Shown: one piece after another, positions 6,542 through 17,962 of the stretch
Position numbering within the stretch: the stretch's first letter is position 1
Layout: every line of letters begins with the position of its first letter
NCBI GenBank assembly: GCA_004356985.1
Contig: SMXQ01000078.1
Span: 593-64,592 of the forward strand
Length of the DNA: 64,000 nt
Direction of reading: 5' to 3'
DNA from: Alphaproteobacteria bacterium
GTDB taxonomy: Bacteria; Pseudomonadota; Alphaproteobacteria; SMXQ01
Program-made: the position numbers and the translations under genes
The notes under the pieces: model-generated
The model's input: only the letters and a program-made list of their open reading frames with translations
Told to the model about the DNA's origin: nothing
Databases searched by the model: none

Positions 6542-6934
6542 CTACGGCCCCAGGGCGATGCGCAGGACCGAGAGGATGGAGACCAAGGCGCAGAGCGCCG
6601 CGCCCCCCTTGACGGCGATGATGAGGGTGATTTTCGCGGCTTGGTTATGGACGTAGTCTTCGATCACCTCTGCCAGGCCCAACTGCAGATGATGGAAGCC
6701 GGCCGCCAGCAACGCGATCATCATCACCGGCGCGATCGGTCCGCGCAGCCAGGCCACCACCTCGCCATGGCCGGCGCCGGTCAGCGCCGCCAGGGAGGCG
6801 ACGAACCAGAAGACCAGGGGAACCAAGGCAAGCGCGGTCAGCCGCTGGGCCCACCAATGGGCGGCCCCTTCCCTGGCCGAACCGAGCCCGCCCAGACGGC
6901 GGAATCGGCTTCCGAAGGCCGTCGGGCCGTTCAT
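6542..6934 (-). CDS. sdhD: Succinate dehydrogenase hydrophobic membrane anchor subunit.
   Basis: About 130-aa 3-TM protein starting MNGPTAFGS. The ORF-track entry 6542..7201 is an upstream over-extension. Its start overlaps the sdhC stop in an ATGA at 6931-6934. Confidence 0.8.
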
Positions 6935-7329
6935 GGGAGGCCGCCAAGACCGCCCGCGCCCACCACCCAGGCGGCGCCGGTCAGCGCCAAAGAAGCCAGC
7001 ACCACGCACCAGCCGGTCAGGCGCGCGACGGTCAGGTCGAACCCCATGCCGATGTCCCAGAACAAATGCCGGATGCCGTTGCAGAGGTGATAGAACAACG
7101 CCCAGGTGAACCCCACCAAGACCAGCCAGCCGAGCCACGACCCGGCGACCGCCCGGGCGCCGTTGAACCATTGGGGCCCCGCCGCGGCGGCGGCCAACCA
7201 ATAAACCAGAAGCAGCGCACCGAGCCCGAGGGCGACCCCCGTCATGCGGTGAAGGATGGAAAGAACGGAAGTGAACTGGGGCCGGTAAACTTGCAGATGG
7301 GGGGATAGCGGGCGGTCGTCTTGAGCCAT
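6931..7329 (-). CDS. sdhC: Succinate dehydrogenase cytochrome b556 subunit.
   Basis: 132 aa with the MAQDDRPLSPHLQVYRPQ...SILHRMTG SdhC signature. Confidence 0.9.
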   Translation of the reverse strand: MAQDDRPLSPHLQVYRPQFTSVLSILHRMTGVALGLGALLLVYWLAAAAAGPQWFNGARAVAGSWLGWLVLVGFTWALFYHLCNGIRHLFWDIGMGFDLTVARLTGWCVVLASLALTGAAWVVGAGGLGGLP

Positions 7330-7595
7330 GGAAGGGCCTCGGTCAGGGGCCGGGCCACCACATGTTACGCCACGCGCGCACCCGTTTCAGGGCCCCGGTT
7401 TAGACCCTGGCCCGCGGCAAGTCAACGACTGCAAACGCGCGCGCCCGGCGGGTCGGGGAGCCATCGGCGGGCCGCTTGCGGGGGCCCCGGCAAGCGGCGA
7501 AACCGGGCGCGGCGGGTCGGGTTTCCGCGACCGTGGCCGATCCAGGGTCGGCGCCATGGGCCCCGGTCCGGAATATGCCAGGGAATCAGAGCTTT

Positions 7596-7740
7596 ACACC
7601 GGAAGTTGTTACTTATTGTTTACCATCCTGTGGATAAAATTGTGAATAAACTGTGTGCACCTTGTGAGTAAATAACAATTTTATGCACAAGAAATGTCAT
7701 TATTACTTGAATTTTTACTTGCGATATTTGCCAGGCAGGG
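7596..7740. promoter_or_regulatory. AT-rich (about 28% GC) segment with a DnaA-box cluster, upstream of sdhC. DUE-like, DnaA-binding or sdh promoter region.
   Basis: TGTGGATAA at 7628-7636 is the perfect complement of TTATCCACA. TGTGAATAA at 7640-7648 and TTATGCACA at 7680-7688 are one-mismatch boxes. GC drops sharply against the 67% background. Confidence 0.5.
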
Positions 7741-8450
7741 TGATTATTCCCCCGGTACGTGGGAGTACCGGGTCCAAAACCGGGTCCAAGGTGAGGAGGC
7801 TCCTCCGGGTTTCTTCAATTGGTCCGGATTTGGGTTCCGGGGGCTGGACATTCAGGCCGGCTTCGGCCGGGCGGATGAAAGGCCAGGCATCGGGGGCGAC
7901 TCTTTCTACGGGAGGAGTTTCGCGAGAAAGCGGCCTTTACGGGCCGGTCGCACCCGGGCGGGGGGAATGGTTTGACCCGCCGAGCCGGTGTTTCCTGGTC
8001 CGCGTGTCTCCCCAAGGGCAGGCGGGCCGTTCCGGGGCTCCCGTAAGGGAGGCCCGGGTTCCAGGCGGGTCATTACGGGGGCAACTCTGCATTGATTCGT
8101 CCCTCTCCGCCGAAAGGGCAACTTTTCGTCGGGGCACTCCGGGAGGAGACTTTCGGGCCGGGGGCAACCTCGGGGAAGCGGGGAAACCCAAGCTTCCAAT
8201 GGGAACGGGAAAGACCGCCGCGGTAATATACTCTTCCCTTCGTTGGGCGCCGCAGCCCCCTCGGGGGCACTGACCGCCGCGGCGGGTGTCGCTTCTCTCC
8301 CTGGGGATGCGATGATTGCCTGGGGTGGTCGGCAGGATGCCTGTCGGTCTCATGTGCCGGGAGCAGCTCTCGCTCCCGGGGCGTCAGGTCCGTCCTTCGC
8401 GGGACAATTGTACAGGGTCCTTGGTCCTTGTGCGCCTGGCGCCCCTTGTC
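7740..8450. other. GC-rich non-coding segment of about 700 nt with dense hairpin potential; candidate structured RNA or long sdh leader.
   Basis: No ORF of credible composition on either strand. Perfect 8-bp hairpin CCCGGTAC-GTGGGA-GTACCGGG at 7750-7771. UUCG-tetraloop hairpin CCGGC-TTCG-GCCGG at about 7856-7869. Partial internal repeats (GGGAGGAG...TTTCG...GGGCC at about 7900 and about 8140). No match recalled to RNase P, tmRNA, SRP or 6S RNA. Confidence 0.3.
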
Positions 8451-8459
8451 TATCCAATA

Positions 8460-8468
8460 CTTATCCAC
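8460..8468. promoter_or_regulatory. Second perfect DnaA box TTATCCACA.
   Basis: Read directly, about 830 bp from the first box cluster, just 3' of the citE-like gene. Confidence 0.4.
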
Positions 8469-8615
8469 AAGGCAACTGAAATTTGCCGGCACCGGTGGTT
8501 CGCCGCTGGGGCGCTTGCGGGCCAAATTGAACCGATGTGGCCCGGAGATGCTCTTGGCACGCCGGGTCCCGGCGCCGGAGAAAGCGCGCCGGGCCAAGAC
8601 CGGCCGGACCGGCGT

Positions 8616-9512
8616 TCAGGCGGTTGGCTCGCCCTCCAGGGCGGCGATGGCAGCGGCGAAATCGACCACCCGTTGGGCCTCGGCGGCGTGCAGCGCCTCC
8701 ACCATGCGCCCGTCGAGGACGGCGACGTGTTGCCCCTTCCCCGCCGCCTCGGCGAAGGCCGCGATGATGGCCTTGGCCTCGCTGATCGCCGCCGCCGACG
8801 GCGCGAAGGCGGCATTGGCGGGAGCGATCTGGCGCGGGTGGATGACCTGCTTGCCGTCGAACCCGAGGCCGCGGCCCTGGGCGCAGGCGGCGGCGAAGCC
8901 CGCATCGTCGGTGAAAGCGGGATAGACCGCGTCGATGGCGCCGAGCCCATGGGCCCGGGCGGCAAGCAGGCTGCGTTCCAGGGCGTAGAGCAAATTGGTC
9001 CGCGCGCCGTCGATCTCGGCGTGCAATTCCTTGGCGAGATCCTCGAGCCCCATGGCGAACAGGACGAGGCGGGAATGGGCGGCGGCGATCTCGGGGGCGC
9101 AGAGGACCGCCCGGGCGGTTTCCACCATGGCCCAGAGCCGCGCGCCGGCGCCTTCGGCGTCGAGCAGGTCGCCGGCGGCGCGCACTTGGTCGGGGCCGGC
9201 GACCTTGGGCAACACCACCGCGTGGACACCCGACGCGGCGGCGGCGCGGAGGTCGGCCTCCGCCCAGGGGGTGCCCATGGCGTTCACCCGGACGACGATT
9301 TCGCGCCGCCCGAAGCCGCCCGCGGCGATGGCCGCCGAGACCTGGGCGCGGGCCGCCTCCTTGGCGTCGGGCGCGACGGAATCTTCCAGATCGAAGATCA
9401 GCACGTCGGCCGCCAGGGTCTTCGCTTTTTCATGGGCCCGCGCGTTGGTCCCGGGCATGTAGAGACAACTGCGCCGGGGCCGCGCCGCCCCCGTCTCGGT
9501 GAACTCCGCCAT
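8616..9512 (-). CDS. HpcH/HpaI aldolase / citrate lyase beta subunit (CitE)-like lyase; malyl-CoA or citryl-CoA lyase family.
   Basis: ORF 8616..9614. Probable start is MAEFTETGA... at 9512 after a GGAGGGAGCA RBS. CitE-like regions ...LYMPGTNARA...DLEDSVAP.... Confidence 0.8.
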   Translation of the reverse strand: MAEFTETGAARPRRSCLYMPGTNARAHEKAKTLAADVLIFDLEDSVAPDAKEAARAQVSAAIAAGGFGRREIVVRVNAMGTPWAEADLRAAAASGVHAVVLPKVAGPDQVRAAGDLLDAEGAGARLWAMVETARAVLCAPEIAAAHSRLVLFAMGLEDLAKELHAEIDGARTNLLYALERSLLAARAHGLGAIDAVYPAFTDDAGFAAACAQGRGLGFDGKQVIHPRQIAPANAAFAPSAAAISEAKAIIAAFAEAAGKGQHVAVLDGRMVEALHAAEAQRVVDFAAAIAALEGEPTA

Positions 9513-14496: not shown

Positions 14497-15510
14497 CTAG
14501 AGATAGCCCCGGGCCAGTTCCTCGGCGATCTGCACGGTGTTGAGCGCCGCCCCCTTGCGCAGGTTGTCCGACACCACCCACAGCGATAGGCCGTATTCCA
14601 CGGTGTCGTCGACGCGGATGCGGCTGACATAGACGGCATTCTCGCCGGCGCATTCCTCGGGCGTCACGTAACCCTCGTCGGCGCGGCGGTCGACCACCAC
14701 GATTCCCGGCGCCTCTTCGAGCGCCTCGCGCGCCTGGTCGGCGGGCAGCGGGCTCTCGAACTCGATATTGATCGCCTCGCCATGGCCGATGAACACTGGC
14801 ACCCGCACGCAGGTGGCCTGGACCTCGATGGCGGGATCGAGGATCTTCTGGGTCTCGACCCGCATCTTCCACTCTTCCTTGGTGGCGCCGTCCTCCATGA
14901 ACGCGTCGATATGGGGGATGACGTTGAAGGCGATCTGCTTGGTGAACTGCTCCTTGACCAATGGGTCGTTGACGAAGATCGCCCGGGTCTGGGTGAACAG
15001 TTCGTCCATGGCCGCCTTGCCGGCGCCCGACACCGACTGGTAGGTGGCCACCACCACCCGGCGGATGGTGGCGAGATCGTGGAGCGGCTTGAGGGCCACC
15101 ACCATCTGGATGGTCGAGCAATTGGGGTTGGCGATGATGTTGCGTTCATGGGCCCCGGCCAGGGCCTCGGGGTTGACCTCGGGCACCACCAGGGGAACGT
15201 CCTCGTCCATGCGGAAGCGCGACGAATTGTCGATCACCATGCAGCCGGCGGCGGCGGCGCGCGGCGCGTGGATGTCGGCGACCGCGGCGCCGGCGGAAAA
15301 CAGCGCGATGTCGGTGCCCTCGAAGTCGTAGTGGTCGAGCACGGCGGCCTTGAGCACCTTTTTCTCGCCGAACGACACCTCCTTGCCGCGCGAGGCCGAG
15401 GAGGCTAGCGCGACCACTTGGTCGGCGGGAAATTTCCGCTCCGACAAGGTCTGCAGCATCTCCCGGCCGACATTGCCGGTGGCGCCGACCACGGCGAGCT
15501 TGTACCCCAT
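14497..15510 (-). CDS. asd: Aspartate-semialdehyde dehydrogenase.
   Basis: 337 aa. MGYKLAVVGATGNVGREM N-terminus and the catalytic NPNCSTI motif. Confidence 0.93.
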   Translation of the reverse strand: MGYKLAVVGATGNVGREMLQTLSERKFPADQVVALASSASRGKEVSFGEKKVLKAAVLDHYDFEGTDIALFSAGAAVADIHAPRAAAAGCMVIDNSSRFRMDEDVPLVVPEVNPEALAGAHERNIIANPNCSTIQMVVALKPLHDLATIRRVVVATYQSVSGAGKAAMDELFTQTRAIFVNDPLVKEQFTKQIAFNVIPHIDAFMEDGATKEEWKMRVETQKILDPAIEVQATCVRVPVFIGHGEAINIEFESPLPADQAREALEEAPGIVVVDRRADEGYVTPEECAGENAVYVSRIRVDDTVEYGLSLWVVSDNLRKGAALNTVQIAEELARGYL

Positions 15511-15544
15511 GGGCCTAGTGTCCTGACTGTCCTATGAATGGGCG

Positions 15545-15626
15545 CCGATCACTTACCCCTAAAGGCGCGCGAGCGCAAGCGGGGCGGGCCCCACGCGGAG
15601 TGGATCACCTGCCCCTAAGCACGCGT
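15545..15626. promoter_or_regulatory. Pair of imperfect 27-nt direct repeats (GATCAC..CCCCTAA..CGCG) upstream of asd.
   Basis: GCCGATCACTTACCCCTAAAGGCGCGCG at about 15545-15572 and GTGGATCACCTGCCCCTAAGCACGCGTT at about 15601-15628, roughly 20 of 27 positions identical. Confidence 0.25.
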
Positions 15627-15751
15627 TGATCATCGGCTGGCTTCAGCCCGGTAACGGGGATGGATCAGGGCCGCTGGGCCAGGCCGGGGCGGCGGGTGCC
15701 GGCCCGGGGCTCGGCGAGAACCAAGTCGAAGCCGCGCCGCATCACGCTGCT

Positions 15752-15904
15752 GAGGGAGGTAGCCTAGATGCGATACGTCTGCTTATCGCCTCTGGTGCTG
15801 ATTTGAATGTGAAAAATACGGCAGGAAAAACGCCGCTGGCGGTTTCCAAGCACCATGACCAGCCCTCCACTACCGAGTTACTTATGGATGCTGGTGGCAG
15901 GTAA
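15752..15904 (+). pseudogene. 3' fragment (about 45 codons) of an ankyrin-repeat protein gene, truncated at the island boundary.
   Basis: Translation ...GSLDAIRLLIASGADLNVKNTAGKTPLAVSKHHDQPSTTELLMDAGGR* is a canonical ankyrin repeat. Upstream in the same frame is native GC-rich non-coding DNA, and GC falls from about 70% to about 40% exactly where the ankyrin frame begins. Confidence 0.5.
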
Positions 15905-16825
15905 TAACGAAGCCTTCTGGCTAATACCGGACGTTGGCATTATTTCTGGTATTGACCAAGGCTGTTGAAAAACTATGTCATTGAAGACCTGAGCGGAACA
16001 ATTGAACCCAGGGCAAGAACCAAGTGAATCATTCTCGCCCAAATGGCCCAATGCGCGAATCTCTCTTGCGTTCCAAAGCTATCGATTTAGTTTTTCAACA
16101 GCCTCGGTCATAAGCGGACTTTTAATCGGTTCAGTAGCTCCCCAATTCGATTGTTCCAGTGGCGAGCAATAAAGATTTTTCTTTATCTGATTTCGCTTTG
16201 TAAACGGCCTTAATAATGGCGAAATAGGAATTTCCTCTGCCACCAGAGCACGGTGGGACATATCCCTTTCCCCAAGCGCGATTGTCTGCTTCGATAAAAC
16301 TACCCTTGGGTAGTTTGTCTGACAAACCAGGAACAGAAGGTAACGTGGCTGGATTCGCAGCGCCTATCCAAAATCCGATTTTTCCGTGCCCGCCATCGTA
16401 ACTTAATGGGCGATAATCGCTATCGTTAAACTCCACAATTATTGCATTAGTGCCGGAAGGAATATTATCGACGATCAGAGCGGGTGTGGCCCCGTGTCCA
16501 TCTTGGCTGGGACATTGCTGACCATCCGGGATAGTTTTTCCATCCCAAGCAGGATCAGCAAACGCAATCTTTAATTTCGGTAAATTTTCCGAAACTGCCT
16601 TGTACTCGGATGCTTCTATCTCTCCTACGGTGAGAGCCATAAGGCCTGATGCTAGGGTGAATACAGCTAGGACTGATAGCATTCTCAAAGACATAGCACG
16701 AATCCTTCTTCTTCCCCATATTGTCCCGGAGTACAGATTAACCCCGCTAGTTCATGAAATTCAAATAAGAATTAATTTAGCGAGTAGTGGCGAACTAATT
16801 TTTTGAACTTATGTCCGCTCATAGC
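15760..16825. other. Low-GC (about 40%) island of about 1.05 kb between asd and leuB; a horizontally acquired remnant with no mobility genes.
   Basis: Abrupt compositional shift at both edges. Holds the ankyrin fragment, about 230 nt of AT-rich spacer and a PEBP-like gene with its own AT-rich promoter. Confidence 0.6.
16131..16694 (-). CDS. Secreted PEBP-like (YbhB/YbcL family) protein with a signal peptide.
   Basis: 187 aa. Signal peptide MSLRMLSVLAVFTLASGLMALT. Pattern ...ALIVDNIPSGTNAIIVEFNDSDYRP...GHGKIGFWIG...GYVPPCSGGRGNSYFAI... resembles the YbhB/YbcL PEBP signature (D-x-DAP, G-Y-x-G-P-x-P). GAAGGA RBS. Atypical codon usage. Confidence 0.55.
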   Translation of the reverse strand: MSLRMLSVLAVFTLASGLMALTVGEIEASEYKAVSENLPKLKIAFADPAWDGKTIPDGQQCPSQDGHGATPALIVDNIPSGTNAIIVEFNDSDYRPLSYDGGHGKIGFWIGAANPATLPSVPGLSDKLPKGSFIEADNRAWGKGYVPPCSGGRGNSYFAIIKAVYKAKSDKEKSLLLATGTIELGSY

Positions 16826-16849
16826 CCAAGGCAAACATCCCACGCGGCC

Positions 16850-17962
<1,113 letters not shown>

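Follow-up and report, generated by a model that had tools for sequence, protein, structure and literature searches.

The stretch analysed here, hereafter the window, comprises 64,000 nucleotides (nt) of an alphaproteobacterial contig (SMXQ01000078.1, positions 593 to 64,592; all coordinates are those of the window). Between sdhC and a citE/HpcH-like gene it contains an intergenic gap of 1286 nt (7330-8615), whose + strand carries a gene for a structured RNA at 7754-8455. On balance, we think it probable that this gene represents a new class of large non-coding RNA (ncRNA) under DnaA-type control, a stand-alone structured RNA of ~700 nt that lies outside Rfam. The RNA has a conserved, strand-specific and covarying architecture, in which a long-range helix (P1) closes a GNRA-rich interior that ends in a pyrimidine-rich hairpin, followed by a second hairpin (H2) and a three-way 3' domain. 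Its gene is usually divergent from sdhCDAB, yet it forms an autonomous unit. A preliminary description of segment 7740-8450 had left the choice between an undescribed structured RNA, a leader before sdhC and a decayed mobile element. The first of these is borne out by strand-specific folding stability, compensatory covariation, conservation across many genomes and the lack of any match in Rfam or ARAGORN searches. We rate the RNA as a new class, within the familiar general category of stand-alone structured ncRNAs.

The folding strength of the segment is a property of one strand. The + strand reached a minimum free energy of -393.1 kcal/mol against -346.8 ± 5.8 kcal/mol for dinucleotide shuffles (z -7.95), and none of 20 shuffles folded as well; for the - strand, z was -1.74. 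Likewise, for the pairs predicted from an alignment of five sequences, the share of standard cells is 94.3% on the + strand and 77.1% when read from the - strand. Such an asymmetry is expected from G-U pairs in a transcribed structure.

A protein-coding gene was rejected. Variable columns are distributed over the three phases as 99/106/99, without codon periodicity, and indels between close homologues are mostly 1-2 nt long and thus break the frame. As the preliminary description had stated, no open reading frame (ORF) in the segment is credible, and the six listed ones had no Pfam match at E<=1. An insertion sequence (IS) or miniature inverted-repeat transposable element (MITE) remnant was also rejected, as the segment is syntenic in many genomes, shows no transposase or repeat signal, has no match in plasmid and phage collections and is present as a single copy, a self-BLAST of the window returning only the locus itself. 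The repeated modules noted before do exist, with 79-92% identity, but they are short only (7906-7917/8137-8148, 7937-7955/8151-8169 and 7891-7903/8076-8088). Together with long stop-free stretches, such repeats are what a decayed IS or MITE, a coding gene of odd composition or a chance GC-rich region would have to offer. Set against the single copy, the missing codon periodicity, Pfam, plasmid and phage matches, the frame-breaking indels, and a synteny that is kept together with compensatory changes, we give these explanations practically no credence.

The predicted transcript starts ~7 nt past a predicted -10 element and ends in a U-rich tail after the 3' stem. P1 pairs GGUACGUGGGA (7754-7764) with UCUCAUGUGCC (8348-8358) and comprises 11 bp in five close homologues. 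It encloses a variable multi-helix interior of ~20 hairpins (7768-8345) with helix-by-helix covariation, the size of which ranges across homologues from ~100 nt in the smallest to ~650 nt in the largest. Eight interior loops follow the GNRA pattern (GCAA four times, GAAA, GAGA, GUAA and GCGA), and UUCG and UACG loops occur as well. Two hairpins that had been picked out by eye are indeed present, the UUCG hairpin at 7855-7872 and the stem near 8108-8134, which is a 12-bp GCAA hairpin spanning 8105-8134. The interior also contains an invariant hairpin, GUCUCCCCAAGGGC (7997-8028). At its end stands the long hairpin Hc (8269-8333) with the conserved apex UCGCUUCUCUCCCUGGGGAUGCGA (8287-8314), for which the family motif is CUCU(C/G)CC(C)(A/U)(A/G)GGG and which is always found ~40 nt ahead of the P1 3' strand.

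Directly after P1 follows H2 (8359-8377), formed by GGGAGC-AGCUCUC-GCUCCC in the window and by GGAGCC-UGGCC-GGCUCC in the majority of distant homologues. Conservation within the family is highest in the three-way 3' domain (8378-8445), a covariance model of which, R1, scores 83.6 bits at 8344-8449. The closing stem of the domain, GGGGCGUCAGGU/GCCUGGCGCCCC (8378-8389 with 8434-8445; family form GAGGCGUCAGG/CCUGACGCCUC), encloses the hairpins HA (8392-8405) and HB (8410-8433, loop UCCUUGGU). The domain is followed by the U-rich tail UUGUCUAUCC (8446-8455), which in most homologues is a clear U-run with the consensus CCUCUUUUUUUU. The 3' stem and the tail probably form an intrinsic terminator. 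The near-invariant 3' stem and the apical motifs of CUCUCCC and UCCCAGG/UCCUUGG type look like recognition sites.

This architecture is supported by covariation at two depths. From five close homologues, RNAalifold predicted 259 pairs, 35 of which show compensatory double changes. For the core, 30 sequences were aligned after excision of the variable interior, which was replaced by an AAAAAA linker. Here, 88.9% of cells are paired, compared with 36-53% when the partners are slid by 1-3 columns, and 28 of the 47 pairs have changed on both sides; none of 500 shuffles matched any of these measures. P1 alone shows compensatory changes in 10 of its 13 pairs across the 30 sequences. In a MAFFT/RNAalifold analysis of the whole RNA in ten sequences, many local helices were supported, but poor alignment of the interior made the long-range pairs unstable; the full-length map therefore rests on the five close sequences. 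Within clades, the interior helices covary. Since P1, which connects the 5' end with the region ahead of the 3' domain, covaries strongly and the interior covaries too, the whole molecule is under structural selection.

At the 5' end, two structures compete. The perfect 8-bp stem with a 6-nt loop reported before at 7750-7771 is present (CCCGGTAC-GTGGGA-GTACCGGG), and both this local hairpin and the long-range P1 are conserved in the window clade. The comparative data favour P1. As the hairpin competes with P1, it may be a folding intermediate, and the pair of alternatives suggests either such a co-transcriptional intermediate or a switch. Two tertiary contacts were considered and dropped. The CCCCAA loop (8010-8015) might have contacted the HB loop (8418-8425), but this is not supported: the former is invariant, while the latter changes in three homologues (L013, L016 and L072) without compensation. 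A kissing contact through a self-complementary H2 loop was abandoned since, by eye, GGCC or AGCU is found in many but not all copies.

The uneven conservation along the molecule raises the possibility that a small RNA (sRNA) derived from the 3' part, with H2 and the three-way terminator domain, is what functions; it would base-pair or titrate a protein, with the 5' part serving only as precursor or scaffold. The ~110-nt 3' domain is by far the most conserved part, and the interior varies from ~100 to 650 nt. In addition, alphaproteobacterial sRNAs have anti-Shine-Dalgarno seeds that are similar to the pyrimidine-rich CUCUCCC-type apices. However, P1 covaries strongly, the interior helices covary within clades and no target complementarity was identified. 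We therefore regard a small 3'-derived product as doubtful, and continue to favour a large RNA that is functional as a whole.

Homologues were collected in several ways. Ten contigs of the same species (L001-L010) are 99.8-100% identical and carry no covariation information. Among relatives, one genome per species with SdhC was scanned, which yielded 80 sdhC loci. With blastn and nhmmer, homologues of the intergenic region were found in L011 (87%), in L012, L013 and L016 (71%), and in L065 and L072, and parts of the region were detected in more distant loci. R1 matches 17 of the 80 species-level sdhC loci. A pattern derived from the 3' domain returned at least 119 stretches from metagenomes, and R1 confirms ~70 of the 119 matches listed. 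A scan of viral contigs gave a single match (L210), which the covariance model did not confirm. The homologous RNAs are 217-799 nt long, and their carriers are many uncultured Alphaproteobacteria, mostly with Rhodospirillales-type labels in the source records.

The gene neighbourhood of these copies bears on whether the RNA serves an adjoining gene. Among the matches listed, a divergent sdhC lies beside 28 of the 34 metagenome copies with enough flank, and a convergent citE-like gene lies downstream in 22 of 44 copies. The other six of the 34 have no sdhC and unrelated neighbours (LicD, MlaC, a hexapeptide protein, PFK, CoA-transferase III and DUF1611), and retain the upstream boxes described below. 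Downstream genes vary between clades. Inherited gene order is the best account of the sdhC/citE neighbourhood. Adjacency to sdhC in most genomes and the long 1286-nt gap would agree with a leader or riboswitch that acts in cis on sdhC, which is on the - strand, or on another flanking gene. The structure is on the + strand, though, pointing away from sdhC and towards the citE-like gene; conserved promoter-like elements and a conserved terminator-like 3' end come with it, it occurs without sdhC, and its downstream genes differ by clade. The leader before sdhC suggested in the preliminary description thus does not hold, and we consider a cis-acting role of this kind very improbable.

Three groups of loci show particular arrangements. 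In L129 (1000-2760), two diverged units of boxes plus RNA stand in tandem downstream of sdhC; they are alike (81%) only over ~70 nt of the 3' domain, and after the first, this domain recurs in two more partial copies, three in all (~1700-1940). In L024 and L034, the region upstream of sdhC contains an inverted TTATGCACA box, a promoter-like region, a GC-rich hairpin-dense stretch and a convergent citE-like gene, with 3' ends that fail to match the family model; these loci may represent a divergent branch of the same RNA. Finally, Tistlia consotensis USBA 355 carries a homologous box array and RNA upstream of sdhC (L036:1-1050, - strand). Its 3' domain ends after GAGGCGUCGGG...GGAUCCCCUAG and is followed, by eye, by a transposase-like ORF at the contig end.

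The second part of our proposal concerns the control of the gene. In the window, the RNA is preceded by four direct, phased DnaA-type boxes on the - strand (a-d, 7629-7671) at a spacing of 12/11/11 bp. Read on the + strand, box a (TGTGGATAA, 7629-7637) and box b (TGTGAATAA, 7641-7649) match TTATNCACA exactly, and box c (TGTGTGCAC, 7652-7660) and box d (TGTGAGTAA, 7663-7671) keep the TGTG half only. A fifth, promoter-proximal box (e, TTATGCACA, 7681-7689) is inverted, on the + strand, and starts 38 bp upstream of a predicted -35 element (TTGCGA, 7719-7724). After a 17-nt spacer follows a predicted -10 element (GATTAT, 7742-7747). We infer that transcription starts at this sigma-70-type promoter and that the promoter is controlled by DnaA.

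The same layout is found throughout the family. The upstream regions of 27 distinct homologues, whose genomes range from AT-rich marine ones to GC-rich ones, can be aligned without gaps, with the -35 (TTGnnn after a T-rich stretch) and the -10 (GATCAT/nAnnAT) at fixed positions. With box e set to 0, direct repeats of the general form TGTG(N)ATAA lie at -52, -40, -29 and -18, TTGnnn at +38, nAnnAT after the 17-nt spacer at ~+61 to +67, and P1 begins at ~+74. The first two repeats are full TGTGNATAA, and the last two keep TGTG. Across the window, there are four exact TTATNCACA sites against 0.34 expected, and all four are at the RNA gene, three upstream and one past the terminator. In 50 of 58 distinct loci chosen by the 3'-domain model alone, an exact TTATNCACA lies within ~1.1 kb upstream of the RNA. 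The N position of the box takes all four bases (G/A/T/C), while the remaining positions are kept. A free N with the rest fixed is the signature of the E. coli DnaA box. Since the array keeps to the RNA gene, also away from sdhC and in tandem, the boxes belong to this gene; the box cluster, formerly seen as a separate neighbour, is part of the conserved upstream region of the RNA gene.

The fourth exact site is a downstream box, TTATCCACA (8461-8469, + strand), directly past the predicted terminator. Such a box is found in some clades only (the window clade, L065/L072/L196, L157, L186 and L207), 5-45 nt past the terminator, and not in the majority of distant homologues. These clades thus have DnaA boxes on both sides of the RNA gene.

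Direct repeats at a spacing of 11-12 bp are typical of winged-helix response regulators. The phased TGTG repeats might accordingly bind another factor, such as a tandem OmpR/PhoB-type response regulator with sdhCDAB under its control as well, in which case the RNA would not be tied to DnaA. The repeat spacing, the retention of TGTG alone in boxes c and d, and sdhC as the usual neighbour would agree with such a factor. On the other hand, boxes a, b and e are full TTATNCACA sites in which, in line with the DnaA consensus, only N varies freely, box e has the opposite orientation to a-d, and the array goes with the RNA rather than with sdhC once the two are separated. We hold a response regulator to be unlikely and prefer control by DnaA.

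Several points tell against our proposal of a large RNA under DnaA-type control. As just described, a tandem response regulator would be compatible with the four direct repeats and their 11-12 bp spacing, too. A promoter scan missed the -35/-10 pair, which matches the consensus at only 8 of 12 positions, and a terminator scan reported nothing at the 3' stem and tail, the tail of the window copy being weak. The closing stem of the 3' domain belonged to the search pattern and box e was used as an anchor in collecting homologues, so the apparent invariance of both is partly due to selection. This concern is reduced by the homologues found by the model only (L038, L042 and L028), which keep the 3' stem with altered base pairs, and by the exact box in 50 of 58 loci. 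An IS-like gene breaks up the 3' domain in Tistlia consotensis, where the RNA may therefore be dispensable; the sole cultured carrier among the homologues found may thus have a disrupted copy.

How could such a promoter work? DnaA would nucleate on the full-consensus boxes and spread over the half-sites one helical turn apart, forming a cooperative filament as at the low-affinity arrays of oriC. The filament would set the activity of the promoter, so that the RNA output would track the level of DnaA, probably of DnaA-ATP. With the array at about -75 to -125, upstream of the core promoter, activation would fit better than occlusion, and either is possible. Most likely, the product would act in trans as a folded RNA or ribonucleoprotein and not as a cis-regulator. 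In its fullest form, this model describes an RNA arm of the DnaA regulon: the DnaA-ATP filament would gate synthesis, and the RNA, acting by itself, in multimeric form or together with a protein, would either exert feedback on the initiation of replication or link the replication cycle with respiratory and tricarboxylic acid (TCA) metabolism. We put this forward tentatively, and think it rather unlikely as a whole. A coupling of replication to the TCA cycle could explain the ancestral linkage to sdhCDAB.

The presence of DnaA-type boxes poses the question whether the locus is the chromosomal oriC of this lineage, with the RNA as an origin-embedded transcript like CcnA or the hemE Ps transcript of the Caulobacter origin. 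Five phased boxes, the AT-rich stretch 7690-7740 and the further box at 8461 are what such an origin might look like, and the region 7629-8469 holds four exact TTATNCACA sites plus two half-sites, where 0.34 exact sites are expected. The layout of boxes and AT-rich stretch is conserved across families, and there is precedent for an ncRNA gene within an alphaproteobacterial origin (PMC8959179). However, the GC-rich homologue L134 has the array but no AT-rich element, and the AT-rich stretch of the window is also where the predicted promoter lies. Array and -35/-10 pair keep a fixed distance from each other, the unit is found in unrelated neighbourhoods, and L129 has two diverged units in tandem. 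The top-strand GC skew, computed on the 64-kb window, is +0.011 to the left and -0.0145 to the right of the locus, which is the wrong sign for an origin. None of hemE, parAB, gidAB, dnaA and dnaN is among the genes checked, which were ~30 of the ~50 window ORFs and those annotated within ±10 kb. From the sign of the skew, L134, L129, the relocation of the unit, the promoter-locked array and the lack of origin-linked genes among those checked, we judge that the locus is not oriC and leave this explanation only a slim chance. Annotators of these genomes should thus be wary of reading oriC into a cluster of DnaA boxes next to sdhC.

Searches for known RNA families agree with the preliminary description, which had recognised no RNase P, tmRNA, SRP, 6S, cobalamin or group II signature. 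At gathering score, Rfam 15 had no match in the whole window or in nine homologous loci, and a scan of 6800-9200 at E<=10 returned four chance-level matches, all outside the RNA. The unmatched families include RNase P, tmRNA, 6S, SRP, group I and II introns, cobalamin and other riboswitches, as well as OLE, GOLLD, ROOL, HEARO, raiA and the alphaproteobacterial sRNAs. ARAGORN found no tRNA and no tmRNA in the 64-kb window, the two-piece alphaproteobacterial form included. Strings resembling helix P4 of RNase P (GGAAAGUC-like, in L074, L028 and L047) were set aside, as they are not conserved in the family and have no covariance model match. A literature search on large ncRNAs linked to sdhC, DnaA boxes or Rhodospirillales yielded nothing relevant but CcnA.

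One Rfam family required closer comparison. DUF3800-VI RNA (RF02915) and the 3' domain both consist of a stem enclosing two hairpins, and RF02915 scores 35.0 bits in L100 (1762-1825), 31.7 in L093 (1931-1993), 28.5 in L157 (1982-2044) and 21.5 in L130 (406-460), all in the 3' domain of distant homologues. The gathering score is 35 bits, and the 35.0 of L100 was seen in permissive mode only and is not reported in gathering mode. RF02915 is a motif of 52 positions, and the match spans ~60 nt of an RNA of 217-800 nt. The window copy, searched over 131 nt, had no match even at E<=10. In genomes, DUF3800-VI RNA is associated with a gene for a DUF3800 domain (PMC5737381). No such gene is among those called within ±10 kb in L001-L005, of the same species, where the domains are Sdh_cyt, HpcH_HpaI, LysE, NMT1_2, ABC_tran and similar. 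Membership was rejected in view of the unmatched window copy, the borderline to low scores and the missing DUF3800 neighbour. Because few aligned positions are identical, the likeness seems to be one of a shared simple shape; the scores reflect either a chance sharing of this fold or a motif related to the 3' domain.

In the window, sdhC (6931-7329) and the citE/HpcH-like gene (8616 to ~9512) are both on the - strand and form the left and right borders of the gap. From left to right, the gap consists of a GC-rich stretch (7330-7580), the AT-rich cluster of DnaA-type boxes (7580-7740) and the segment 7740-8450. This last segment had been called GC-rich. At 0.58-0.68 in 200-nt windows, its GC content does not exceed the 0.61-0.69 of the whole window; it merely seems GC-rich because the AT-rich box cluster adjoins it. 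Upstream of sdhC, the 250 nt that separate its start from the box array (7330-7580) are 70-80% GC, with a seemingly perfect palindrome (7471-7484/7485-7498, GCCGCTTGCGGGGG/CCCCGGCAAGCGGC) and direct repeats (7440-7457/7504-7521). They may be the 5' untranslated region of sdhC or a regulatory element. Elsewhere, ~1.3 kb between asd (14497-15510) and leuB (16850-17962) contain, on a crude gene map, no ORF with the typical high third-position GC (15511-16849). In the annotation of a metagenome-assembled genome of the same species, the equivalent gap has only a gene of 104 amino acids without a Pfam match.

New classes of large bacterial RNAs are rare, and RNase P, tmRNA, OLE, ROOL and GOLLD have revealed unexpected biochemistry. 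The RNA described here occurs widely among environmental Alphaproteobacteria of soil, freshwater and ocean habitats, and stands out by its strong covariation support and by a small core with large clade-specific expansions. The origin-like array of DnaA-type boxes locked to its predicted promoter hints at a link to replication control. If control by DnaA is confirmed, it would directly connect the replication initiator to a structured RNA, in a group of bacteria from which hardly any cell-cycle RNAs are known.

In its general character, the RNA resembles the ornate RNAs OLE, GOLLD, ROOL, raiA and HEARO. Like these, it is hundreds of nt long, GNRA-rich and built from many covarying helices, and is encoded by a stand-alone gene with its own terminator, the context of which does not give away its function. 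The likeness draws on published descriptions (PMC12286853, PMC5737381) and on general background. It differs from them in having no sequence or structure match to any in Rfam 15, in hosts labelled mostly as Rhodospirillales-type Alphaproteobacteria, and in a length of 217-800 nt around a small conserved core. As far as unsystematic literature searches go, an upstream array of DnaA-type boxes is not known for OLE, GOLLD, ROOL, raiA or HEARO.

For the array itself, the closest likeness is with the phased arrays of E. coli oriC, datA and DARS, where high-affinity boxes flank lower-affinity sites one helical turn apart and one box is inverted. The array shares the consensus boxes flanking weaker sites, the helical-turn spacing and the single inverted box. 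In contrast to the E. coli arrays, it is fixed to a -35/-10 pair and an RNA gene, has no conserved IHF or Fis sites or unwinding element, and lies at a locus that is not origin-like. The nearest precedent for the combination of both is CcnA of Caulobacter crescentus, an ncRNA whose gene is tied to DnaA boxes and which is thought to be linked to replication and the cell cycle (PMC8959179). CcnA is 182 nt long, is encoded inside the essential origin, has a promoter with CtrA boxes and base-pairs with the ctrA and gcrA mRNAs (PMC8959179). Both are thus alphaproteobacterial ncRNA genes physically associated with DnaA boxes, whereas the RNA described here is larger, at 217-800 nt, far more structured, unrelated in sequence and encoded at a locus that does not resemble an origin.

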